Shown one piece after another: positions 1 through 45,303 of a stretch of 50,201 bases of DNA. The stretch covers positions 1 to 50,201 of IMG/VR virus record IMGVR_UViG_3300025875_000618; one strand, 5' to 3'. Source of the DNA: a virus. Taxonomy: Duplodnaviria; Caudoviricetes. The notes under the pieces were generated by a model. It was not told the origin of the DNA, made no database searches, and worked only from the letters and a program-made list of their open reading frames with translations. The stretch's first letter is position 1, and every line of letters starts with the position of its first letter. The position numbers and the translations under genes are program-made.

Positions 1-1532
1 CGGGACCTCTCCAGGTCCGCGGGCAGCACCGCCCCCACCCGGCGGGCCGGGGGTGCAACTCCAGTGGCAGCGCGCGGCCCACGCTCCAAGTCCGGGGCCG
101 GCCCAGCTGGCGAGAGCTCCAGGGCGGGCAGGGACTGCCGGACCCGCTCCAGGTCCTGCCGCACCGCGGTGGCAATCTCCTGGGCCCGCTGCGCGTCCCC
201 CACCGCCACGTGCGCGTCGTGCAGCGCCCGCGCCATGTTCGCCAGCTGCCGCAGCAGCACCGCCTCCGCCACCGGCCCGCGCCCGCCGTGCGCCGCGGAC
301 GCCAGCAGCAGCGCCGCGCCCCGCGCCGTGGGCCCCACCCGCCGCTGCCCCCGGGTCTGCCACGCCGGCACCTGCGCGGACCGCGCCAGGGCGTCCGCGG
401 TGGCCGCCAGCGGCCCCGGGGTGTCCTCCACCCGCCGGGACCAGGCCGCGAACGCCCCAGACGTCTCCCGGGCCACCCGCGCCCACTCCGCCACGTCCTC
501 CACCGGCACCCGCCGCAGGTACTCCCGCACCTCCTGCAGCTCCGCGGACACCTGCTCCCAGGCGTCCGGCTCCGGCACCACGGTCTCCCGCCCGGGCGCG
601 GCCGGCCGCCGCTGCCGCCGCGCCGCCTGCCACTCCGCCACCGCCGCCTGCGCGCTCTCCGGGGTGTCCGGCCAGTCCTCCCGCAGCCGCGGCAGCGTCA
701 GGTCCTTGGCCAGGTGCCCACCGCCGTACCACACCGGCCGGTCCTCCCGGGACGCCGGCCGCGCGGCCACGGAGTACCCGGCCACCACCTGGTCCGTCCC
801 GGCGGCGTACCGCGGCCGCACCAGCAGCCGCTCCGCCCGCAGCCGGCGCACGAACTCCGCCTCGTCCCCGGACGCCGCGGCCGCGGCGCGCACCGTCCGC
901 GCCAGCGTCTCCCGCACCGTCTCCGGGGCGCCGGTGCGCCGCTGCTCCTCCAGCTCCGCTGGCTTCACCCCGCGCTCACCGCGGCCCCGGGACCGGGACT
1001 CCAGCACCTGCAGCCCGTACCGCTGCTCCAGCTCCCCGCACACCTTCTGCGCCCGCGGCTGGTCCCGCCACACGTCCGCCTTGGTGCCGTCCTCCCGCAC
1101 CAGGTTCACCACCAGGTGCACGTGGTCGTTGCCCGCGCTGGACAGCCCGTGCCGGACCGCCACCCACCGGCACGCCGCGCGGCCGCCCTCCGGCTCCTCA
1201 CCGCCGCCGGAGAAGCCCATGCGGTCCACGAACTCCTGCGCGATCTCCGCCCACCGCCCGTCCGTCTGCTGGCCCTCCTCCGCCCGCAGGGACAGGGAGC
1301 AGTGCCACACGTGCCCGCCCGGCACGTCCACCATGAACGCCCGCCGCGGGTGGTCCAGCTCCCGCGCGATGCTCAGCGCGGCGTCGTGGGACAGCTCCGT
1401 GTCGTCGTGCCACGCCATGATCGCGGGGTCACCGGCCACCAGGTGCGGGTCCGTGTGCTCGTTGCGTCTGCCTGGCCCCACCAGGTACGCCATGAGCCCG
1501 GACATGCGCGTGCCCCGGCTGATGTTGGGCAT
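1..1532 (-). CDS. Relaxase/mobilisation nuclease (MOB_P-like), 3' end beyond the window edge
   Basis: Manual translation from ATG at 1532: MPNISRGTRMSGLMAYLVGPGRRNEHTDPHLVAGD...VWHCSLSL...NDHVHLVVNLV. It has the catalytic Tyr motif and HUH motif of actinobacterial relaxases. Absent from the ORF track because it runs off the edge. Confidence 0.9.
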   Translation of the reverse strand, partial: MPNISRGTRMSGLMAYLVGPGRRNEHTDPHLVAGDPAIMAWHDDTELSHDAALSIARELDHPRRAFMVDVPGGHVWHCSLSLRAEEGQQTDGRWAEIAQEFVDRMGFSGGGEEPEGGRAACRWVAVRHGLSSAGNDHVHLVVNLVREDGTKADVWRDQPRAQKVCGELEQRYGLQVLESRSRGRGERGVKPAELEEQRRTGAPETVRETLARTVRAAAAASGDEAEFVRRLRAERLLVRPRYAAGTDQVVAGYSVAARPASREDRPVWYGGGHLAKDLTLPRLREDWPDTPESAQAAVAEWQAARRQRRPAAPGRETVVPEPDAWEQVSAELQEVREYLRRVPVEDVAEWARVARETSGAFAAWSRRVEDTPGPLAATADALARSAQVPAWQTRGQRRVGPTARGAALLLASAAHGGRGPVAEAVLLRQLANMARALHDAHVAVGDAQRAQEIATAVRQDLERVRQSLPALELSPAGPAPDLERGPRAATGVAPPARRVGAVLPADLERS

Positions 1533-1885
1533 CACCCCCGGTCCACCCCCTGGCTGGAGGGGCCGAACAGGTCCACGATCCGCTGCAGGTCACGTCCCGC
1601 GGCGTCACCCACCAGGCAGTGCTCCCGGCACGGACCGCACAGCCGGTCCTCCCCGCTGGCCAGCTGGGAGCACCGCCGGCGGTCTGGGTGCACGTGCGCC
1701 AGCGGCCAGCCCGGGCAGACGCAGCGGAGCACCGGGTCCAGCAGGTCCCCCAGGTTGCTGGACAGCGGGGTGTGCCGGGACCGCCACAGCTCCTCCACGG
1801 ACTGCGCCGCCTGGCCCAGGTGCGCGGACACCTCCCGGTGGTCCGCGATGCCGTAGCGGTGAGAGAACGGCGGGCGGCCGCTCAC
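1532..1885 (-). CDS. Hypothetical Cys/His-rich protein
   Basis: GTG start overlaps upstream stop; stop overlaps relaxase start; CxC...HxH...CxxCxxHC. Confidence 0.65.
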   Translation of the reverse strand: MSGRPPFSHRYGIADHREVSAHLGQAAQSVEELWRSRHTPLSSNLGDLLDPVLRCVCPGWPLAHVHPDRRRCSQLASGEDRLCGPCREHCLVGDAAGRDLQRIVDLFGPSSQGVDRG

Positions 1886-3395: not shown

Positions 3396-3946
3396 GCCGG
3401 CCCCCGCAGCAGCTGCAGCACCCGCTGCGCCACGAAGTACCGGGCGGCCGTGGCGTCGGCCACCGCCGCCTCCTCGCTGCCCTCCTCCGGGTGCTCCGCG
3501 GGCAGCTCCGCCATGCTGCGGGCCCGCAGCTCCCGGCAGTACTTTCGCACCCGGTCCACCGCCGCCTGCGCGTCCTCCGCCGGGTCCTCCGGCCCGTCCA
3601 GCTTCTGCTGCAGCAGGCACAGCTCCAGCTCACCCGCGCCGCCCGTCCCCGGCCAGCACCGCGGCATCTGCGCCCCACCGTTCGTGCCCCGCGTGTCCCA
3701 GCTGCAGCCGATCACCTGGCACTTCCGCAGCGGCGCGGACTGCCACACCTCCTCCTCCGTGCGCTCCCCGTCCCGCCGGCGCATGAGCCGCACCGCACCC
3801 CCGGCCGGGTAGCCCTCCGCGAACCGCGCCGCCTGGTGCCTGGCGTTGGACGCCCCGGGCCGCTGCCACGTGGTGGCCGCCTGCCACACCTCCTGCCCTG
3901 GCCGCCGCACCTGCACCTGGTACTCCGCGTCCTCCACCGTGCTCAC
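3392..3946 (-). CDS. Hypothetical protein
   Basis: 184 aa ORF, GTGA-coupled. Confidence 0.7.
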   Translation of the reverse strand: MSTVEDAEYQVQVRRPGQEVWQAATTWQRPGASNARHQAARFAEGYPAGGAVRLMRRRDGERTEEEVWQSAPLRKCQVIGCSWDTRGTNGGAQMPRCWPGTGGAGELELCLLQQKLDGPEDPAEDAQAAVDRVRKYCRELRARSMAELPAEHPEEGSEEAAVADATAARYFVAQRVLQLLRGPA

Positions 3947-4371
3947 GACCCCACGCTCCCCACGCCCTCAGCTGCCAGCGCGTCCAGCGCCTGGTCGATC
4001 CGCCCACCCGGGCCAGCCACGTCCCTCAGGTGCACCAGCAGCTCCCGCACCTCCACCACCGGCAGGTCCCGCGTGGTGTTCGCCTGCCGCGCCAGCTGGT
4101 TGAGGTTCGTGGCCACCCCCGCGCACTGCCGGCGCAGCGCGAACAGGTCACGCATCGCCTGCCGCCGCTCCGCCGGCACCTCCCGGTCCGCGGCCAGCGC
4201 GGACTCCACCAGCAGCCGCTGCACCGACACCCCCAGCCGCCCGGCGCGCAGCAGCAGCTCCGCCTCCTCCTCCGGGGACGTCCGCACTTTCCGCACCCCC
4301 GGCCGCCCGCCCGGTACACCCTCCCGCCGGGACCGGCCCAGCAGCTGCCCCGGCGTCCGCTCCCCGCTCAC
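3943..4371 (-). CDS. mobC: MobC family relaxosome accessory protein
   Basis: RHH-like N-terminus (KVRTSPEEEAELLLRAGRLGVSVQRLLVESAL) and the diagnostic NLNQLARQAN motif. Confidence 0.9.
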   Translation of the reverse strand: MSGERTPGQLLGRSRREGVPGGRPGVRKVRTSPEEEAELLLRAGRLGVSVQRLLVESALAADREVPAERRQAMRDLFALRRQCAGVATNLNQLARQANTTRDLPVVEVRELLVHLRDVAGPGGRIDQALDALAAEGVGSVGS

Positions 4372-4535
4372 GTGGCCACCGCCGCAGCCGCCCGGCACTC
4401 CGCGCAGTCCAGCTCCTCCGGGCGTGCACCGCGCTGCCACCGCACGTAGTCCACGGAGCACAGCCCACCCGTCCAGTCCGGCCCGAACAGGCCCACCAGG
4501 TCCTCCGCCCGCACCGGCCGCGGCGTCTCCGTCAC
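4368..4535 (-). CDS. Small hypothetical protein
   Basis: GTGA-coupled; DLVGLFGPDWTGGLCSVDYVRWQR. Confidence 0.6.
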   Translation of the reverse strand: MTETPRPVRAEDLVGLFGPDWTGGLCSVDYVRWQRGARPEELDCAECRAAAAVAT

Positions 4536-4840
4536 GCTGCCCACCCCTCCACGATCAGCCGCACCATGCGCGCGCCCTCGTCCAGCTCCGTGGTCTCCTT
4601 CGGCGGGCGCACCAGTGCCAGCCCGGACTCCGCCACCGTGGCCGCGAACTCCCCGCGCACCTGCGTCCACCACATGCCCTCCATCACCGGCAGCCGCCTG
4701 GTCCACTCCGCCCCGATGACAGCGCGCACCGCGGTCACCCGCTGCCGGGACAGCCCGCCGCAGTCGCAGTCCACGTGGTCCCAGCCGGAGTCCGCCGGGC
4801 AGTCCGCTAGGTGCTCACGCCGGGGCCCGGGAGCGGTCAC
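4532..4840 (-). CDS. Hypothetical protein
   Basis: GTGA-coupled; H..DC...CDC motif. Confidence 0.6.
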   Translation of the reverse strand: MTAPGPRREHLADCPADSGWDHVDCDCGGLSRQRVTAVRAVIGAEWTRRLPVMEGMWWTQVRGEFAATVAESGLALVRPPKETTELDEGARMVRLIVEGWAA

Positions 4841-5643
4841 GGCTCCGCGGTCCAGTAGCCCAGGTGCGCGGCCGTGGACCACGTGTTCACCGCGTCCAGG
4901 TCCGGGTGCTCCGGCAGCGGCGTCCGGCCGTGCCGCAGCAGCCACTGCAGCTGCGCCGCCCGCTCGTCAATCAGCAGCAGCACCTCCCGCAGCGGCACCT
5001 CCCCACGCTTCACCGCCAGCACCAGCTCCCGGTCCTCCTCCGGCAGCGGCAGCGTCAGCCGGCCGGCCTGCACCACCTCCAGACCCTGGATGCACAGCCG
5101 CAGCGCGTGGGAGGCGTACTTGGTGTCGAAGCCGTGCGCGGCCACCAGCTCCGGCCGGTTGGGCGTGTGCCGCGTGTCCTGCCCCGTCACCCGCTGCCGC
5201 TGCGCCGTCATGTACCCCAGGAACCGCCGCCCGGCCTGCTGGGACAGCAGGGTGGGCCCGAACAGCCGCAGCTGCTCACCCAGCGGCGTGGACACCAGCA
5301 CGTGCTCCCGCGGCGCGAACAGCGGGAGCAGCGCCGTGGGATTCCCCGTGGCCACCAGCGCCAGGTACTTGCGCAGGGCGTACAGCGTCAGGTCCGTGTC
5401 CCCATGCCGGGACCGGTGACCCTCCGGCACCGTCCGCGCCACGTAGTGCTGCGCGTCCTGCGCGATGCCCAGCACCTGCTGCGGGGACTCCACGTACACG
5501 CCCATCTCGTCGTGGTCGTCCTGGCCCTCCAGCGCGATCCCGTGGACCCCGGAGCCCACCACCGTCCGCAGCACCTCCCGCTGCGGCGCGCTCCTGTCCC
5601 CGTTCTCCGTCAGCCACAGCCGCGTGGCGTCCAGCTCCGTCAC
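4837..5643 (-). CDS. Pol-beta superfamily nucleotidyltransferase (RlaP/YcgL-like)
   Basis: VVGSGVHG...DDHDEMGV (GS + DxD), GNPT, FDTKYASHALRL motifs. Confidence 0.85.
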   Translation of the reverse strand: MTELDATRLWLTENGDRSAPQREVLRTVVGSGVHGIALEGQDDHDEMGVYVESPQQVLGIAQDAQHYVARTVPEGHRSRHGDTDLTLYALRKYLALVATGNPTALLPLFAPREHVLVSTPLGEQLRLFGPTLLSQQAGRRFLGYMTAQRQRVTGQDTRHTPNRPELVAAHGFDTKYASHALRLCIQGLEVVQAGRLTLPLPEEDRELVLAVKRGEVPLREVLLLIDERAAQLQWLLRHGRTPLPEHPDLDAVNTWSTAAHLGYWTAEP

Positions 5644-6104
5644 CTCAGCACCTCCACGTAGGCGTCCGGGAACGCGCCCGTCTGACCCGACGCCGGCAGG
5701 TACACGGTCAGCCCGATCACCTCCGCCGACGTCACCCGCATCACCGGCGGGGCCTCCGCCAGCGCCGCGTCCATGTCCCGCTCCCAGGCCGCCAGGTCCA
5801 GCCGCGCCAGGTCCAGCCCACACGGGTACCGGCCCGGCGCGATGTTGTCGCACGTCCCAGACAGGATCACCTCCAGCGGGTCCAGCCCAGACGGGTACAC
5901 GCTCACCCGGCCCACCAGCGTGGCCCCCGCGTGACCCCCCGGCCACGGCCGCGTGTACAGCGCCATGAGCGGCACCGTCGCCACCCCGCTGAGCGCACCC
6001 GCCGCGATGCTCCGCCGGTCCGCCGTCTCCCGTTCCATCCACCCCGCGCGTCCCCGCACGGAGAACGGCTGCCGCAGCAGCACACCCGCCCTGTCCTGTG
6101 GCAC
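5640..6104 (-). CDS. Stand-alone prohead-protease-like domain protein (paralogue of domain in 31494-34166)
   Basis: GGAGGAG RBS before GTG 6104; TADRRSIAAGAL...PLM...GGHAGATLVGRV aligns by eye with TGDGRIFKVGSL...PLL...GHDGSIVVGRI. Confidence 0.6.
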   Translation of the reverse strand: MPQDRAGVLLRQPFSVRGRAGWMERETADRRSIAAGALSGVATVPLMALYTRPWPGGHAGATLVGRVSVYPSGLDPLEVILSGTCDNIAPGRYPCGLDLARLDLAAWERDMDAALAEAPPVMRVTSAEVIGLTVYLPASGQTGAFPDAYVEVLR

Positions 6105-14168: not shown

Positions 14169-14993
14169 TCAGCAGGTGCAGGGCGGCAGCGCGTCCTCCA
14201 GGGTCAGCTCCGCCCGGTCCGCCTCCGCGTGCCCGCACTCCGGCAGCTCCCACAGGGACTCCGCGTGCAGGCGCACCACGGCCTGGAGCACGTACCGGGA
14301 CAGGTTGGCCTGGCGGCGCTCGCTGCGCAGCCGGCCGATGCGCCGGGAGTCCTCCAGCAGGGTCTCCCGCCGCTGCGTGTACTGGTACAGCTGGGCGGTG
14401 CGCGCGCACGTCCACCGCACGTTCATGTCCCACAGCTGGCCGCGGTGGTTGACTCCGCCCACCGGGCCGCAGAGCAGCTGCGCCGGCGGCAGCCAGGCGT
14501 CCACCGCTGCGGTGTCCCGCGGGTCCAGGTCCTGCGGCAGCAGCCGCTCCACCAGGACGTCCACGTGGTCCGTGTCCAGGTAGTACTCCCGGTCCGCCCC
14601 GTCCGCCTGCTCCTCCGCGGTGGGGGTCAGGGTGACCTCCCGGGTAGCGGGGTCAGTGGTAACGGTGGCGGCGGTGATCCACAGCTCCTCTAGCGGCCAG
14701 GTGGCCACGCGCACGCGGTCTCCGTCCTGCAGGCCGGTCACCGGCAGCTTCACGGTCTCCCGGGGGCCGGCCAGGTCAAGCGCGGGCGCGGCGGCCAGCA
14801 GGTCCACCTCCCGCTGGGCCACCTGGGCGGCGTGGGGGTCGCAGGCCACGTGCGCCGTGCCGGCCACCACCACGGTCAGCAGGGTGGTGGCCCGGCAGGG
14901 GGTGCCGGCCTTCGTCACGCCGGTGCAGCGGCTGCTGGTGGCCTGGGCGGAGTAGGTGACACCGGCGGGGAGGGTTTGGGCGTACATGGTCAT
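14169..14993 (-). CDS. Hypothetical protein (N-terminal CTGxTKAGxPC motif)
   Basis: GCTGAGGAG RBS; 274 aa. Confidence 0.75.
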   Translation of the reverse strand: MTMYAQTLPAGVTYSAQATSSRCTGVTKAGTPCRATTLLTVVVAGTAHVACDPHAAQVAQREVDLLAAAPALDLAGPRETVKLPVTGLQDGDRVRVATWPLEELWITAATVTTDPATREVTLTPTAEEQADGADREYYLDTDHVDVLVERLLPQDLDPRDTAAVDAWLPPAQLLCGPVGGVNHRGQLWDMNVRWTCARTAQLYQYTQRRETLLEDSRRIGRLRSERRQANLSRYVLQAVVRLHAESLWELPECGHAEADRAELTLEDALPPCTC

Positions 14994-14998
14994 GGCGG

Positions 14999-15084
14999 GC
15001 TCCTCAGCGTGGTGGGCGGTGCGTACATGGGGAGTGTACACACACCGGCCCGGCGCGCGTCCACCCCCCATGTACGGGCGTGTC
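14999..15084 (-). promoter_or_regulatory. Promoter with two palindromic boxes
   Basis: TGGACG-N19-TACACT; boxes at 15023-15039 and 15059-15075; GGCGTGTC 15077-15084. Confidence 0.75.
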
Positions 15085-15454
15085 ACTCCTCCGCGGCGTC
15101 CAGCTCCTCCACCACGCGGCGCAGCTGCTCCAGCCGCACCTCCCGCTTGGTCACGCCCTGCCCGGCCGGCATGGAGTACCCGGCGGGGTAGGTGTAGCTC
15201 CGCCGGGACTGGCCGGTGCGGGCGTCGATGACGTCCCGGGCGATGGTGTGGCAGCGCGCGCACATCATGGTGCGGGAGTAGCCGGTGACCCGGCCGCTGT
15301 CGCTGGTCACGCGCCGCCAGGACCAGTCCGTGCGCGGGGGCCAGGTGTGCTGGACGTCCCGGCAGGCCAGGAAGTCTGGGGCGTAGTCCAGGAGGCGGGC
15401 GGGGTCTGCGGCTTGCTCAGAGTGGACACGGCGGGACTGCTCCTCAGCTGTCAT
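15083..15454 (-). CDS. Actinophage-type Zn-binding hypothetical protein
   Basis: LACRDVQHTW...CARC...YTYPAGY pattern; likely leaderless. Confidence 0.75.
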   Translation of the reverse strand: MTAEEQSRRVHSEQAADPARLLDYAPDFLACRDVQHTWPPRTDWSWRRVTSDSGRVTGYSRTMMCARCHTIARDVIDARTGQSRRSYTYPAGYSMPAGQGVTKREVRLEQLRRVVEELDAAEE

Positions 15455-15465
15455 GCCGCGGTACT

Positions 15466-15502
15466 GTACACTCACCGTGTACACACCCCAGCTGAGGAGC
15501 TG
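15466..15502. promoter_or_regulatory. Divergent promoter with palindromic box and RBS hairpin
   Basis: GTACACTCACCGTGTAC 15466-15482; CAGCTGAGGAGCTG 15489-15502. Confidence 0.7.
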
Positions 15503-15504
15503 CC

Positions 15505-15726
15505 ATGAGCACCGCCCGCACCGCCACCACCGGCCGCCGCCGCCCCGGCTCCGTCCGCTTCGACCCGTACTGGAAGGTCCAGGTGTGGGAGGACCGCTCC
15601 CTGACCTGGAAGGACGTGCAGAAGGCCCACCCGTCCCCGGAGCAGGCGTGGGCGGCCGCGCCCGCCGGGCAGACCGTGCGGCTGATGCACGTCTACCCGG
15701 GCGGGCGCGCCCCCGTCACTCGCTGA
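15505..15726 (+). CDS. Small hypothetical protein
   Basis: GAGGAG RBS; FDPYWKVQVWEDRSLTWKDVQK. Confidence 0.75.
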   Translation: MSTARTATTGRRRPGSVRFDPYWKVQVWEDRSLTWKDVQKAHPSPEQAWAAAPAGQTVRLMHVYPGGRAPVTR

Positions 15727-18223
15727 ACCCGTACTCCGGGCGCGGGCTGCGGTTGCCCACCACCCACAGCAGGTCACCCTCCTGCAGGAACGGCAGGCAC
15801 TTGGCCTCGTACCAGGGGTCCAGCTCCAGCCCGCCCAGGTCCGTCTCCGGTGCGGCCTGGTGGTAGTCCAGCCCGGACTCCACCAGGGTCACCAGCTGCT
15901 CCCAGCCCTCTGGGGCCCACTGCTGCAGCCGCTCCGTGGGGTCCGCGCCCACCCGCACGCCCAGCACCGGGACGACGAAGCCGGCGCGGCTCATGCCGTG
16001 CAGCACCCCGGACAGGCTCATGGCGGAGCCCACCGGCATGACGATGCGGCGGACCTCCAGCAGGTGCTCCCGCAGCGCGGCCACCTGGGCGGCGGTGGCG
16101 TCCACCGCCTGCTGGCACTCCATCCCGAACGGCACCAGGGTCATGCCCTGCGCCGCGGCGTCCTCCCGGGCCCGGGCCACGATCACCGTGTTGTACCCCG
16201 GCCGGTGTTCGATCACCTCAGCGCCGAACGCGCGGACCCGGGCCAGCGTCTCCGTGTCCTCCGCAGCGGCGGGCACGTGCAGCCGGGCGGGGATGCCCAG
16301 GCGCTGCGCGATGCTGGCCACGATCAGCGCCTGCGGTGACGTCCTGGAGGAGGCGGTCACCAGCCCGGTGGCGCCCTCCGCCAGCGTGCGGCAGGACCGC
16401 ACCTTGCCGCCGGCCTGCCCGGCGTACACGTACGCATCGTCCCGCTTCACCAGGTGCCCGCCCCACCGCTCCACCGGGGTCAGCTCCGGGGTGTGGTCCG
16501 GCAGCTCCAGCTCCTCCTGCGCCTCCACCTCCGGCACGGTGACGTCCACCAGGCCGCAGTCCCGCGCCGCCTGCATCCCGTCCCCCTTGACGAACACCAG
16601 GACGTGCTGGTGCGTCCGCCCCACCTTCCGCCCGGCCATGAACTGGCGGCCGGCGCGCACCGCCAGAGACCCCACCGGCGTCACGTAGATCATCTCGTTG
16701 TAGAAGCCGGCGCCGGCCGCTTCGAAGGCGTCGATGGTGTCCCGGATCAGGCCCAGGTACCGGCCGTCTCCGCGCTTGGAGCGCACGTCCCCGATGACCC
16801 AGACCGCGAAGCGGTTGGGGGCCAGCCGGTCCACCGCCTTGCGGATGACGTCTGCGTGGGCGGTGCGGAACTCCTCCGCGGAGAGGGTGGACAGGTCCTG
16901 CGGGTCGTCGGAGTACCGCTCCAGGTAGGCGTAGGGCGGGCAGGACAGCAGCAGGTCCGCCGGCCGCCCCGGCTCTGCCAGGACCTCCCGGGAGTCCCCC
17001 TGCGTCCAGGTCAGGTCAGCGCCGGCGGGCGCGATGCCCCGCTGGGCGTCGTTGGCGTCCACCTGCTCCTGGCGCAGCTCCACTCCCTCGTAGGAGCGGC
17101 CCAGCAGGGCGGTGACCAGGCCGCGCACGGAGCCGCCGGCGAAGGGGTCCAGGACGTGGCCGGCGGCGGGGGAGAACCAGCGCACGGCCAGCTCCACCAG
17201 CACCGGGTCGAAGATGGAGGTGCCGGAGGTGGAGAGGTTCTCGGTGGACCCGGAGGAGTCCAGGTGGTCCCGGGTGAACTCGTCGTGCGAGAGCTCCCGG
17301 CCCAGGCGGGCCTCCGCCGCCTCCTTCTGCGTGTAGTAGGTGGGGACCCGCCCGGACGCGGAGGCCACGGTGAGCGCCCGGCCCTTGGCGTACCCGGGGT
17401 CAGCTGGGGCGGTGGTGCCGTCCGTGCTGCGCCCGATCCACGCGCCGCCACCGCCGCCGCCCGGGTGCGGCCCGCCGGCCTTGGTGCTGCGGGTGGGGGT
17501 GACACCCCAGCCGCCCTGAATGTCCGCGATGCCCGCCTGGTTGGAGTGCGCCAGGCCCTCACCGCGGCCCAGCTCAGACTGGATGCCGTGGGCCAGCCAC
17601 TGCGTCTTGCGGTTGCGCCACGGGCCGGAGCGGGCGTCCAGGACGGAGAACGGGGGGACCACGAAGCGGTCAGCCAGCGTGGGCCGGGGTGCCTCCGGCT
17701 CTGCGGGCTCCGCCACCGGGGACTCCGCGTCCGGGCGCTCCCCGCGCTCCGCCGGGTCCCGCTCCTCCTGCTCCTGCTGCAGGTCCTCCAGGGAGCTGTC
17801 CCCGGCCATGCTGTCCAGCAGCGCGTCCAGGTCCTCCTCCGCGTAGCCGGTGCCCTCCAGGTCCGGCAGGTCCTGCAGCAGCAGCGCCAGCACCGGCTCG
17901 TCGTAGGTGCCCAGGTCCGCCGTGCGGTTGTCCACCAGCAGGATGCGCAGCGCCTCCTGGTCGTCCACGTCCAGGAACACCGCGTCCACGTACTCCCAGC
18001 CCAGGTAGCGGGCTGCCATGAAGGTGTGGTTGCCGGCCAGGACGTGGCCGGTGGACTGCTGCACCACGATGGGCCGGTACTGGCCGTGCCGGCGGAGGCT
18101 GTCCGCGATGGCCTGGACGTCACCGCGGCGCGGGTTGCGGGGGTGGGGCTCCAGGTTGTCCACCCGGGCGGAGACGGTGTGCTGGCTGGGCTCAGCGGCG
18201 GTGGGGGCGGCGGTCTCTGACAC
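15716..18223 (-). CDS. Fusion: ParB/Srx N-terminal domain + amino-DNA methyltransferase + fold-type II PLP-dependent enzyme
   Basis: ParB: LEPHPRNPR...PIVV...LAGNH...DNRT. MTase: VLDPFAGGSVRG, SCPPY. PLP: LTPVE...VKRDD...GGKVR...PVGSAMS...LDPWYEAK. One uninterrupted 835-aa ORF. Confidence 0.9.
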   Translation of the reverse strand: MSETAAPTAAEPSQHTVSARVDNLEPHPRNPRRGDVQAIADSLRRHGQYRPIVVQQSTGHVLAGNHTFMAARYLGWEYVDAVFLDVDDQEALRILLVDNRTADLGTYDEPVLALLLQDLPDLEGTGYAEEDLDALLDSMAGDSSLEDLQQEQEERDPAERGERPDAESPVAEPAEPEAPRPTLADRFVVPPFSVLDARSGPWRNRKTQWLAHGIQSELGRGEGLAHSNQAGIADIQGGWGVTPTRSTKAGGPHPGGGGGGAWIGRSTDGTTAPADPGYAKGRALTVASASGRVPTYYTQKEAAEARLGRELSHDEFTRDHLDSSGSTENLSTSGTSIFDPVLVELAVRWFSPAAGHVLDPFAGGSVRGLVTALLGRSYEGVELRQEQVDANDAQRGIAPAGADLTWTQGDSREVLAEPGRPADLLLSCPPYAYLERYSDDPQDLSTLSAEEFRTAHADVIRKAVDRLAPNRFAVWVIGDVRSKRGDGRYLGLIRDTIDAFEAAGAGFYNEMIYVTPVGSLAVRAGRQFMAGRKVGRTHQHVLVFVKGDGMQAARDCGLVDVTVPEVEAQEELELPDHTPELTPVERWGGHLVKRDDAYVYAGQAGGKVRSCRTLAEGATGLVTASSRTSPQALIVASIAQRLGIPARLHVPAAAEDTETLARVRAFGAEVIEHRPGYNTVIVARAREDAAAQGMTLVPFGMECQQAVDATAAQVAALREHLLEVRRIVMPVGSAMSLSGVLHGMSRAGFVVPVLGVRVGADPTERLQQWAPEGWEQLVTLVESGLDYHQAAPETDLGGLELDPWYEAKCLPFLQEGDLLWVVGNRSPRPEYGFSE

Positions 18224-43313: not shown

Positions 43314-43520
43314 TCAGAAGGCGGCGGACCAGGCGGCGTAGACCGCTGGGGGCGCGCAGGCCAGCGCGGTCAGGGCCAGCACGGACAGCCCGAAGCGGAG
43401 GGCCTGCCAGGTGCCGGCCCGGTGCTCCGCCTCCTCAGCCGCGGCGGCGTCCCGGCGCAGTGGTGCCTGCTGCGCCGCGTCCCGTAGTTGCGTGACCTTG
43501 CTCATGGCGTCCCCCGTCAT
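43314..43520 (-). CDS. Small membrane protein downstream of terminase
   Basis: ATGA overlap with terL; C-terminal TM. Confidence 0.6.
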   Translation of the reverse strand: MTGDAMSKVTQLRDAAQQAPLRRDAAAAEEAEHRAGTWQALRFGLSVLALTALACAPPAVYAAWSAAF

Positions 43521-45094
43521 CGTCCGATCCCTGGGCGGCGGACTCCTCCGCCGCCGCCCCCACCTACGCGCAGCCCAGTGGCTGAGCCGATCACTGCCTG
43601 ACCCACCAGGGGGGACACCACCAGGTGCAGCACCGCCTGGGTCAGCATGTCCACCGCGTCGTCGTGCGCCCCGTTGGGGAAGGCGGCGGCCTCCACCACC
43701 AGCTCCTCCACGTTGGGCAGCAGCTCCGGGTCCGGCAGGTGGACGTTCTTGGAGGCCACCAGCGGCGCCGCGGCGTTGGCCCGCGCGATCTTGCCGCCCT
43801 CCGGCTCCACCGGGTGCAGGCCGGCCACGCTCTTGCGGAGCATGTCCATGACGGCCGTGCCGTTGGCCTTGTCCTCCACCAGCTTGAGCGTCGCCTGCGG
43901 CCACCGGGCGGTGAGCGCGCGCACCGCGTCCAGGGTGTCGGTGAAGCTCATGCGGCGGCGCACCATGTCCAGCAGGTACAGGTCCACGCCCCGTTTCAGC
44001 CAGACCCCGCCCACCACGTAGTCCGCCTGGTCGTGGCTCTTGAACGCCATGTCCCAGGACTGGGCCAGCTGGTCCCCGGGGGCGGGCGGCACCCAGCGGG
44101 AGCCGTCCGCGCGCTCCACCCACAGGGGCGCGGAGTAGCGGGCCCAGGAGGCGCGCTTGAACAGGTCACCCTCAGCGGGGGACGGGTGCCCCTGGTACAG
44201 GGCGGTCCAGGTGTGCGCGGACCGGGCCTTGCGCTCCTCCCACTGGGCGGTGGTGCGGCCGCGGGCGCTCTCCAGGTACTCCCCGGGCTCCCGGCCCAGC
44301 GGGTCCGTCTCTCCCAGCTCCGGGCGGTGGTCCGCCTGCGCGGGGATGTTGAGGACCTGCCACTGCGGGCCCTCCGCGGACGCCAGCAGCCGGCCGGCCA
44401 GGTCGTCCTCATGCCAGCGGGTGAGGATCAGCACCACGGGCGCGCCGGGGGCCAGACGGGTGGAGGCCACGTCCGTCCACCAGTCCCACACCGCCTCCCG
44501 GTAGGTGAGGGAGTCCGCCTGCTTGCGGTCCTTGATCGGGTCGTCGATGACCAGCAGGTCCACCGGGCGGCCGGTCAGGGCGCCACCGATGCCGGTGGTG
44601 TACATGCCGCCCTCATGGCCGGCCAGCTGCCACTCATGCTGGGCGGAGACGTCCGGGCGGACGGACAGGCCCAGCTCCCCGGAGTGCTGGCCGATGTCGT
44701 CCCGGATGACGCGGCCCCAGCGGCGGGCCACCCGGTCCTCGTAGGAGGCCAGGGCCACGCGCAGCTCAGGGTTCTGCAGCAGCGCCCAGAGGGGGAAGGC
44801 GCGGGAGGCGCGCTGGGACTTCCCCTCCTGCGGGGGCATGGAGATGATGAGCTTGCCGTCCGGGGTGTCCAGCAGCTCCACCAGCGCGGCGTCGATTGCC
44901 TCCAGGGCGGGGGTCTGCACCACCTTGGGGTTGAGCGTCTGGGCGAGAGCTCCAGGTGTGCGCCAGCGGTCCCGGGGGCGGTCCCGGTTGGCGCGGTCAC
45001 TGATCGCGAACAGGGCGCGCGCCTCCGCCTCCAGCTCCTCCAGGGTCATGGAGGCTGGGTCTGCCAGGCCGGGGAGGACCGCGCCCGCGGTCAC
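43517..45094 (-). CDS. terL: Terminase large subunit
   Basis: Walker A MPPQEGKS, Walker B LLVIDD, TRWHEDDL, ALYQG, nuclease SWD, EDKANG, FPNGAHDDAVD. Confidence 0.95.
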   Translation of the reverse strand: MTAGAVLPGLADPASMTLEELEAEARALFAISDRANRDRPRDRWRTPGALAQTLNPKVVQTPALEAIDAALVELLDTPDGKLIISMPPQEGKSQRASRAFPLWALLQNPELRVALASYEDRVARRWGRVIRDDIGQHSGELGLSVRPDVSAQHEWQLAGHEGGMYTTGIGGALTGRPVDLLVIDDPIKDRKQADSLTYREAVWDWWTDVASTRLAPGAPVVLILTRWHEDDLAGRLLASAEGPQWQVLNIPAQADHRPELGETDPLGREPGEYLESARGRTTAQWEERKARSAHTWTALYQGHPSPAEGDLFKRASWARYSAPLWVERADGSRWVPPAPGDQLAQSWDMAFKSHDQADYVVGGVWLKRGVDLYLLDMVRRRMSFTDTLDAVRALTARWPQATLKLVEDKANGTAVMDMLRKSVAGLHPVEPEGGKIARANAAAPLVASKNVHLPDPELLPNVEELVVEAAAFPNGAHDDAVDMLTQAVLHLVVSPLVGQAVIGSATGLRVGGGGGGGVRRPGIGR

Positions 45095-45303
45095 GGGGTG
45101 GGGTCCTGCTCTGCGCGGGAGCGGCTGCAGGCCGGGCACAGGTCCCGGCCGTGGTGCTGGGTCCAGCCGGCCAGGCGGGCGGCGTGCTGCGCGCCGGCGG
45201 GCAGGGTCTCCGTGGTGGGCAGGGCGGCGCGGCACCGCTCCAGGGACACGGTGGGGCGGTCCGCGCGGGTGCCCTCGCACTGGACCAGCAGGCGCACGGT
45301 CAC
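45091..45303 (-). CDS. Small phage Zn-finger protein
   Basis: CEG...C...AAR.AGW...DLCPAC. Confidence 0.7.
   Translation of the reverse strand: MTVRLLVQCEGTRADRPTVSLERCRAALPTTETLPAGAQHAARLAGWTQHHGRDLCPACSRSRAEQDPTP

Follow-up and report, generated by a model that had tools for sequence, protein, structure and literature searches.

A ParB-methyltransferase-PLP fusion protein of a metagenomic phage and its relatives as candidate enzymes of a new DNA hypermodification

The window examined here is the whole 50,201-base record of a virus (Duplodnaviria; Caudoviricetes; IMG/VR record IMGVR_UViG_3300025875_000618), which is linear, about 75% G+C and of an estimated completeness of 78%. On its minus strand (15716-18223, predicted GTG start) lies a single open reading frame (ORF) whose 835-aa product joins a ParB-type domain, a class I S-adenosylmethionine (SAM)-binding methyltransferase (MTase) fold and a fold-type II pyridoxal phosphate (PLP) domain. 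What would a protein resembling DNA methylases do with a PLP enzyme? A first-pass annotation, made from the sequence alone, had suggested that the MTase fold transfers either a methyl or an aminocarboxypropyl group from SAM to a base, which the PLP domain then trims. Transfer of the arm followed by trimming is the best-supported of these options, and the trimming is likely a decarboxylation, as indicated by the homology of the PLP domain to the phage enzymes ViI gp226 and M6 gp52 and by the use of a SAM decarboxylase as an alternative partner of related MTases. Methyl transfer as the step on which the PLP domain acts finds no support, because a methyl group brings with it no alpha-amino acid for the domain.

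We propose, with a probability of roughly 0.55, that an aminocarboxypropyl group is transferred from SAM to a base amine and is then decarboxylated by the PLP domain to give an aminopropyl base. The MTase fold would pass the 3-amino-3-carboxypropyl arm from SAM on to an exocyclic base amine, with release of methylthioadenosine, while Arg367 would hold the SAM carboxylate. The PLP domain would then take off the carboxyl, leaving a positively charged N-(3-aminopropyl) base (+57.06 Da) by way of a +101.05 Da intermediate, and the ParB domain would bring the enzyme to DNA or switch it on there, with no chemistry of its own. Relatives linked to a SAM decarboxylase would arrive at that base too, by taking the carboxyl off SAM first. 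What the sequences show directly are the domains, their homology, the motifs and the pattern of partners; that the arm and not a methyl group is moved, that DNA accepts it, that a decarboxylation follows, and in which order all this happens, is what we infer from them. A first guess for the target, from relatives of SPPY type, is N4 of cytosine, with N6 of adenine or N2 of guanine as alternatives; word statistics of the genome did not reveal a target base or motif. The modification likely serves either to shield the DNA partly from host nucleases or to neutralise its charge for packaging.

The PLP domain and phage DNA-base decarboxylases

The PLP domain (aa 578-826, 15746-16492, minus strand) is compact, and the resemblance to 1-aminocyclopropane-1-carboxylate (ACC) deaminase and D-cysteine desulfhydrase noted earlier proved to be one of shared fold only. 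Its best structural match is 1J0A, an ACC deaminase homologue (Z 24.1, root-mean-square deviation (rmsd) 3.1, 252 aligned residues), and 1J0A, D-cysteine desulfhydrase and ACC deaminase are the closest solved folds (Z 22-24), which places the domain in fold-type II. However, it differs from these enzymes in identity (18-22%), in length (about 250 aa versus about 330) and in its substrate loop, which is SPQ where the solved desulfhydrase has SNH, and it misses the family cut-offs by far (12.7 bits versus 289 for TIGR01275, and 16.3 versus 429 for PRK03910). The label of ACC deaminase, or of a metabolic gene, was rejected on these family scores and on the SPQ loop.

A weak match to a gene in the thymidine-modification cluster of phage Montesquieu pointed to ViI gp226 and M6 gp52, which are described as PLP-dependent decarboxylases of amino-acid-modified thymidine in DNA that require a free primary amine (Lee et al., PMC8989533). 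The PLP-domain profile matched gp226 with 97.6% probability (E 3e-12, 157 columns) and gp52 with 94.1% probability (E 1e-7, 230 columns). Lys607 (codon 16403-16405), the putative Schiff-base lysine, is kept in 116/116 homologues and aligns with the proposed Schiff-base lysines K92 of gp226 and K36 of gp52. Matches to PHROG 3650 and 7093 are common to the PLP domain and the gp226/gp52 family, 1J0A is the best structural template for them all, and gp226 also has SPQ, GYN and YEAK-like motifs in common with the PLP domain. Furthermore, in a tree of 34 PLP domains (FastTree, long branches), gp226 and gp52 sit among MTase-linked domains, and gp226 groups with Vincenzo gp2, which adjoins a CPPY MTase (local support 100). 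On sequence grounds, then, the PLP domain is homologous to these DNA-base decarboxylases, and it likely trims its substrate in the same way, by decarboxylation.

The two characterised enzymes act on Ser or Gly put on 5-hydroxymethyldeoxyuridine by an amino acid:DNA transferase (ADDT), whereas the partner of the PLP domain in the 835-aa protein is a SAM-binding MTase fold. No ADDT was found in any of 35 records with PLP and MTase genes, including five cultured phages and seven viral records at least 90% complete, by a search that detected the ViI and M6 controls and missed Montesquieu. Pfam scans of 71 and 93 frames of the window gave no other base-modification gene either, and the earlier statement that the window shows no genes of the hydroxymethyluracil or hydroxymethylcytosine pathways held up as regards the thymidine pathway. 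With a domain of a decarboxylase family and no donor found, SAM is left as the only known source of an amino acid on the DNA.

The cluster of phage Montesquieu (L003:6940-9450) deserves a separate remark. Two genes published as an ACC deaminase and an ABC transporter sit within this thymidine-hypermodification cluster. The former, labelled a metabolic gene in PMC9331655, is a relative of gp226, and the latter matches P-loop nucleotide kinase 3.

Partners and cofactor pocket of the methyltransferase fold

The MTase domain (aa 332-560, 16544-17230, minus strand) has motif I before motif IV. Its closest solved sequence is 2ZIE, a permuted relative (E 5e-10), and its model matches TrmN (Z 17.1, rmsd 2.2, 179 aligned residues) as a class I, seven-stranded SAM-binding fold; tRNA guanine-N2 methyltransferases are its best structural matches. 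The consensus of amino-MTases is given as FxGxG for motif I and (D/N/S)PP(Y/F/W) for motif IV, with a base-stacking role for PPY (PMC7544214). All the motifs quoted in the first-pass annotation were located (DPFAGG at aa 359-364, SCPPY at aa 427-431, VKRDD, GGKVR with K607, PVGS and LDPWYEAK). SCPPY (16931-16945) is present as claimed, but it is not a canonical amino-MTase motif, because Cys428 fills the catalytic D/N/S position; CPPY is found in the query and in 119/119 homologues. In motif I (DPFAGGSVRG, aa 359-368, 17120-17149), which reads D-P-F-A-G-G364-S-V-R367, the last Gly of the consensus is Ser (115/119 homologues), and the position of Thr in 2ZIE is taken by Arg367.

The company that such MTases keep is informative. 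Among 269 MTase ORFs, gathered by searches seeded with three other MTases and by profile mapping, 146 have a PLP enzyme within 3 kb, 78 have a SAM decarboxylase, and none has both. Seven of the remaining ORFs have only a 165-aa protein like phiCTP1 gp52, and for 38 no partner was seen (five of them near a contig end). The exclusion extends to whole records: AdoMet_dc was found in 0/35 PLP records, and the PLP profile, which may miss other PLP clades, in 0/20 decarboxylase records. In the cultured phages P2559S and ZRG1, the SAM decarboxylase gene overlaps the end of the MTase gene.

The residues at positions 364 and 367 follow the partner. Asp364/Phe367 is found in 78/78 ORFs linked to a SAM decarboxylase, and Gly/Arg in 141/147 PLP-linked ORFs, where four were unparsed, two are different and none has Asp/Phe. 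In spermidine synthase, the Asp of the glycine-rich motif is reported to bind the aminopropyl amine, and decarboxylated SAM is the aminopropyl donor (PMC6514230). For this residue, D103, a repulsion of the SAM carboxyl has been suggested; D103I is described as abolishing aminopropyl transfer and giving trace methyl transfer, whereas V106T, three residues after D103, improves SAM binding, and the two changes together help to convert the enzyme to a methyltransferase (Junker et al., PMC3725402). Positions 364 and 367 correspond to D103 and V106 by the register of motif I, as read through the primer sequences printed in PMC3725402. Spermidine synthase and putrescine N-methyltransferase thus offer a parallel, with a class I fold in which residues of motif I decide between aminopropyl and methyl transfer, and the Asp of the D103 site recurs in the decarboxylase-linked phage clade. 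With Asp/Phe in all of its members, this clade looks built for decarboxylated SAM; the PLP-linked enzymes, judged by the same residues, look built for intact SAM, with Arg near the carboxylate.

These partners could also be read in the reverse order, in which the PLP domain would decarboxylate SAM itself and the MTase fold would then transfer aminopropyl to DNA, to give the same product. This order would make the PLP domain a direct stand-in for the SAM decarboxylase, in line with the exclusive partners, and the commonest PLP insertion separates the SAM-binding motifs of the MTase from one another. However, PLP-linked MTases keep Gly/Arg and never have the Asp/Phe pocket, and the characterised PLP homologues are described as acting on polymeric DNA (PMC8989533). 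We consider the reverse order decidedly unlikely.

The pocket raises the question of the acceptor as well. A SAM decarboxylase together with an Asp-bearing motif I is a signature of polyamine synthesis (as described in PMC6514230 and PMC3725402), the MTase domain has its best structural matches in tRNA methyltransferases, and standalone copies lie among replication genes, all of which would suit the same chemistry on a packaging polyamine, a free nucleotide, RNA or a virion protein. Against this, the PPY motif, with the base-stacking role assigned to it in PMC7544214, is invariant, the nearest sequence relatives are DNA methylases, and both the PLP homologues and the ParB partners appear DNA-directed (PMC8989533, PMC13229309). 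Spermidine synthase itself differs in its polyamine acceptor; Pfam Spermine_synth had no match in the window, with control genomes positive, and the 835-aa protein has Gly364 where an aminopropyltransferase has Asp in motif I, and Arg367. Such a non-DNA acceptor is rather unlikely in our judgement.

A third kind of partner is found in the seven ORFs mentioned above, whose MTases have Glu/Lys at the two positions (7/7). The phiCTP1 gp52-like proteins are about 165 aa long, have an invariant N-terminal Lys and match the PALP fold by predicted structure (Atlas, TM 0.69); no match to Pfam or PHROG was found, and profile comparison with the PLP alignment gave 0.7% and no match. Judging from the predicted structure and from motifs, these proteins could be fold-type II PLP enzymes in a minimal form. 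One locus holds both a gp52-like protein and a PLP gene. It was also observed that gp52-like proteins (L112:4207-4722, L274-L280, L095) follow MTases with a Glu/Lys motif I and an SPPY motif IV.

The simplest alternative is an ordinary or degenerate DNA methylase beside which the PLP enzyme or SAM decarboxylase does a separate job, such as draining SAM against SAM-dependent host restriction. Pfam and PHROGs do file the domain with DNA methylases, many copies are without partner, and Cys for Ser is a mild change in a family of which a few relatives keep SPPY. Yet a plain methylase leaves unexplained why a PLP domain is inserted into the MTase fold, why there are three separate PLP-fold partners, and why the cofactor pocket changes in step with the SAM decarboxylase, and we regard it as unlikely. 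To arm transfer and decarboxylation can be added a wider claim, which to us stands at even odds, that the family filed as DNA methylases never methylates and writes aminocarboxypropyl and aminopropyl bases by two routes, with any of three PLP-fold enzymes acting on DNA or with SAM decarboxylated first, and that acetyl-, aminoacyl- and hydroxyl-adding partners extend the free amine.

Several observations weigh against aminocarboxypropyl transfer followed by decarboxylation. Gly/Arg is also found in 30/33 MTase ORFs without a partner within 3 kb, and this pair indicates intact SAM only, which fits methyl transfer too. The equivalence of positions 364 and 367 comes from motif register rather than from a ligand-bound structure. 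All MTases with Asp/Phe fall into one clade (SH-aLRT 100, quick tree), so that the exclusivity of partners and the covariation of residues amount to one evolutionary event, and the loci were sampled from few seed queries. Eight of nine partner-less records checked have no PLP match anywhere, the PLP profile being found in the other one. Conversely, a CPPY MTase is missing from the 6 kb around some standalone PLP genes (for example at L062, L064, L091, L092, L097, L099, L102 and L103). Homology of the PLP domain to gp226 and gp52 is distant (22-23% identity), the PLP tree has no cellular outgroup, and gp52 scores 33.9 bits against the profile versus 39.1 for D-cysteine desulfhydrase, albeit under different search settings. 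The ADDT search missed one of its three positive controls, and the completeness of the present record is 78%. Finally, 11 of 33 six-base palindromes with an expectation of at least 3 are absent from the genome (for example AGCGCT, 0 versus 20.8 expected, and TCCGGA, 0 versus 19.8); since the genome is still shaped by restriction in this way, any modification is not a blanket shield and is probably sparse or site-specific.

Three side observations concern the same subjects. The archaeal virus HCTV-2 (L108:4326-4967) has an MTase copy for which neither a PLP gene nor a decarboxylase was found, followed by a second small MTase. Among the standalone PLP genes, those of L092, L102 and L097 are on bacterial contigs, near Eco57I-type methylases (two Bradyrhizobium records) or near a BamHI-like restriction-modification pair and an integrase. 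As for word counts in the window, CGA/TCG occurs at about one third of expectation (517 versus 1446, both strands), and CAGCTG, CTGCAG, CCGCGG and GCCGGC are tolerated.

The fused gene and its ParB domain

That three domains lie in one ORF, as first annotated, was borne out by Pfam, with ParB_N at aa 20-99 (E 5e-8), N6_N4_Mtase (E 6e-8) and PALP at aa 615-764 (E 5e-14), all above the curated cut-offs. The ORF has a third-position GC content (GC3) of 0.96 and strong codon bias. The record is represented in two groundwater metagenome runs, and a contig of run X1, which is possibly the source sample and as such non-independent, spans 14500-18092 with zero differences and crosses both the ParB-MTase and the MTase-PLP junctions. 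The fusion is also real because collinear full-length homologues exist at 59% (P0002) and 55% (P0003) identity over 97%. An assembly artefact, to which the first-pass annotation had left room, was ruled out by this contig together with the collinear homologues. Promoter and terminator scans found none.

In an AlphaFold2 model of the 835-aa protein (mean predicted local confidence (pLDDT) 76, predicted template-modelling score (pTM) 0.44), the individual domains were modelled, but their mutual placement is not fixed. The order is ParB, a conserved W-x-x-R-K segment, MTase fold and PLP domain. The ParB N-terminal-type domain (aa 17-140, 17804-18175) carries the motif AGNHT and also matches phrog_723. 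The conserved segment (aa 180-222, 17558-17686), delimited by alignment and by the domain maps of the loci, accompanies the MTase even without ParB and is possibly part of substrate recognition. It is followed by a variable Gly-rich linker (aa 223-331, 17231-17557), mostly of low confidence, with pLDDT below 50 over aa 221-288.

In many relatives the coding sequence is broken up after the W-x-x-R-K segment, giving two ORFs that adjoin or overlap (L006-L011, L030, L037, L042, L114-L176), which represent either separate genes or a programmed frameshift.

Within the ParB/Srx fold, nucleotide-using enzymes such as the ParB CTPase and the SerK and SbnI kinases have a conserved Arg in the G-x-x-R motif, and the two kinases supply O-phosphoserine to fold-type II PLP enzymes. 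The first-pass annotation had brought up this kinase chemistry, and it could be applied here by letting ParB feed O-phosphoserine to the PLP domain for beta-replacement onto a base; the fold-type II enzymes SbnA and CysM do share the PLP fold (Z about 19.7). The motif of the 835-aa protein, compared as a motif and not with SerK or SbnI directly, has Thr67 at the site of the Arg, however, and Arg is found in 51/104 homologues. ParB is also the least conserved domain (median identity 38% in 104 homologues, versus 52-69% for the MTase and 58% for the PLP domain), is absent beside 15/65 PLP-linked MTase clusters, and occurs beside decarboxylase-linked and partner-less MTases as well. ParB as a serine kinase was rejected on the missing motif Arg, the low conservation and the absence beside some clusters, and the route built on it seems to us far-fetched. 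By analogy, an activator of a DNA-modifying enzyme appears to be a better model than a kinase, since a phage ParB, without its NTP-binding residues, is reported to activate a thymine dioxygenase on duplex DNA (PMC13229309).

Distribution, known systems and genomic context

The discovery is the family rather than this single locus. A full-length homologue search gave 1418 matches among 8000 scored candidates, and the triple fusion proved common in uncultured phages, in three geometries: among the best 120 of the 1418, the PLP domain is inserted within the MTase in 91, C-terminal in 21 (including the 835-aa query) and N-terminal in five, and three are without it. In the commonest geometry the domain thus lies inside the MTase fold, with the insertion site between the SAM-binding motifs. 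At E 1e-30 or better, 502 clusters formed at 50% identity match the PLP profile. Cultured phages with an inserted PLP domain are Pam4 and Erythrobacter phage ZS04; Vincenzo and AlanGrant have the two-gene form, Mae-JY30 has the three-gene form, and Alsa_1 is a further cultured example. A search with the MTase only gave 63 viral loci, 58 of which have a PLP gene beside or inside the MTase gene, mostly of a second PLP clade, but these are few independent cases because 56 ORFs share one 75%-identity cluster.

The annotated link to packaging genes applies to the relatives and not to the present locus. The large terminase subunit starts at most 2 kb downstream in 43 of 60 cluster representatives of ParB-bearing relatives with enough downstream DNA, and ParB-less copies lie among replication genes of larger phages. 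Here, the terminase large subunit (43517-45280) is about 25 kb from the 835-aa ORF, so that the ORF does not lie just upstream of it. The placement of the relatives agrees with the phage loci of Iyer et al. (PMC4738411), in which ParB and an amino-MTase upstream of terminase were predicted to modify DNA during packaging; the prediction there was plain adenine methylation, however, and the accessible text of that paper mentions no PLP or SAM-decarboxylase partner.

Extra domains are fused or adjacent in some relatives (P0279, L085, P0087, L093, P0268, L284, P0266, P0350 and P0355), namely GNAT acetyltransferase, a lysylphosphatidylglycerol (LPG)-synthase-like aminoacyl transferase, an Asp/Arg-type hydroxylase, DNA polymerase A and inteins. 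The GNAT, aminoacyl-transferase-like and 2-oxoglutarate hydroxylase partners would fit a free amine as a handle, but they occur in few relatives. In addition, a 253-kb viral contig (L029:3917-8728) has three tandem ParB-MTase paralogues, with a PLP insertion in the middle one only.

Precedents are known separately for phage hypermodification, for non-methyl transfer by an MTase fold, for PLP decarboxylation on DNA and for ParB-methylase-terminase loci; to our knowledge, transfer of the SAM arm is known for RNA, polyamines and small molecules only. Neither a ParB-MTase-PLP or ParB-MTase-SAM-decarboxylase module nor an aminocarboxypropyl or aminopropyl DNA base was found in the full-text literature searched, which leaves most subscription papers and supplements outside. 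The nearest parallel is the CmoX/CmoA/CmoY system for carboxymethylcytosine, where CmoX is described as a phage MTase-fold enzyme that adds a non-methyl group to DNA (PMC12783734). It has in common with the present family a non-methyl transfer from a SAM-type cofactor, an Arg for the carboxylate, a partner that makes the cofactor or tailors the product, and frequent ParB neighbours; however, CmoX belongs to the C5-cytosine MTases and transfers carboxymethyl from carboxy-SAM (Cx-SAM), whereas the 835-aa protein is amino-MTase-like and its group would be the methionine arm. The TapT-like tRNA transferases put the aminocarboxypropyl arm of SAM onto a nucleobase, but they act on tRNA uridine, and no decarboxylation is described for them in the text available; the likeness considered is one of chemistry (PMC12630136).

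If the proposal is true, transfer of the SAM arm would be a new DNA base chemistry, and many 'DNA methylases' of phages and prophages would have to be re-labelled, as the number of PLP-matching clusters suggests. Phage genes regarded as metabolic, such as those for ACC deaminase and SAM decarboxylase, could be DNA-modification genes. Such an enzyme would, moreover, serve for labelling, as it would need nothing but ordinary SAM to place a primary amine on DNA. Cultured phages whose hosts are harmless carry each of the routes, with vB_EliS-R6L as a further example of the PLP route.

The same window encodes terminase, portal and head genes, and the host would be actinobacterial, judging from composition and from the portal and terminase families. 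It also has a MobA/VirD2-like relaxase gene (3-1589, minus strand, E 2e-12) and a MobC/NikA-like gene (3943-4461, minus strand), and with both of these alongside the terminase, portal and head genes the virus is possibly a phage-plasmid or a mobilisable phage. A further gene on the minus strand (4837-6042) encodes an RlaP-family nucleotidyltransferase (E 9e-23).

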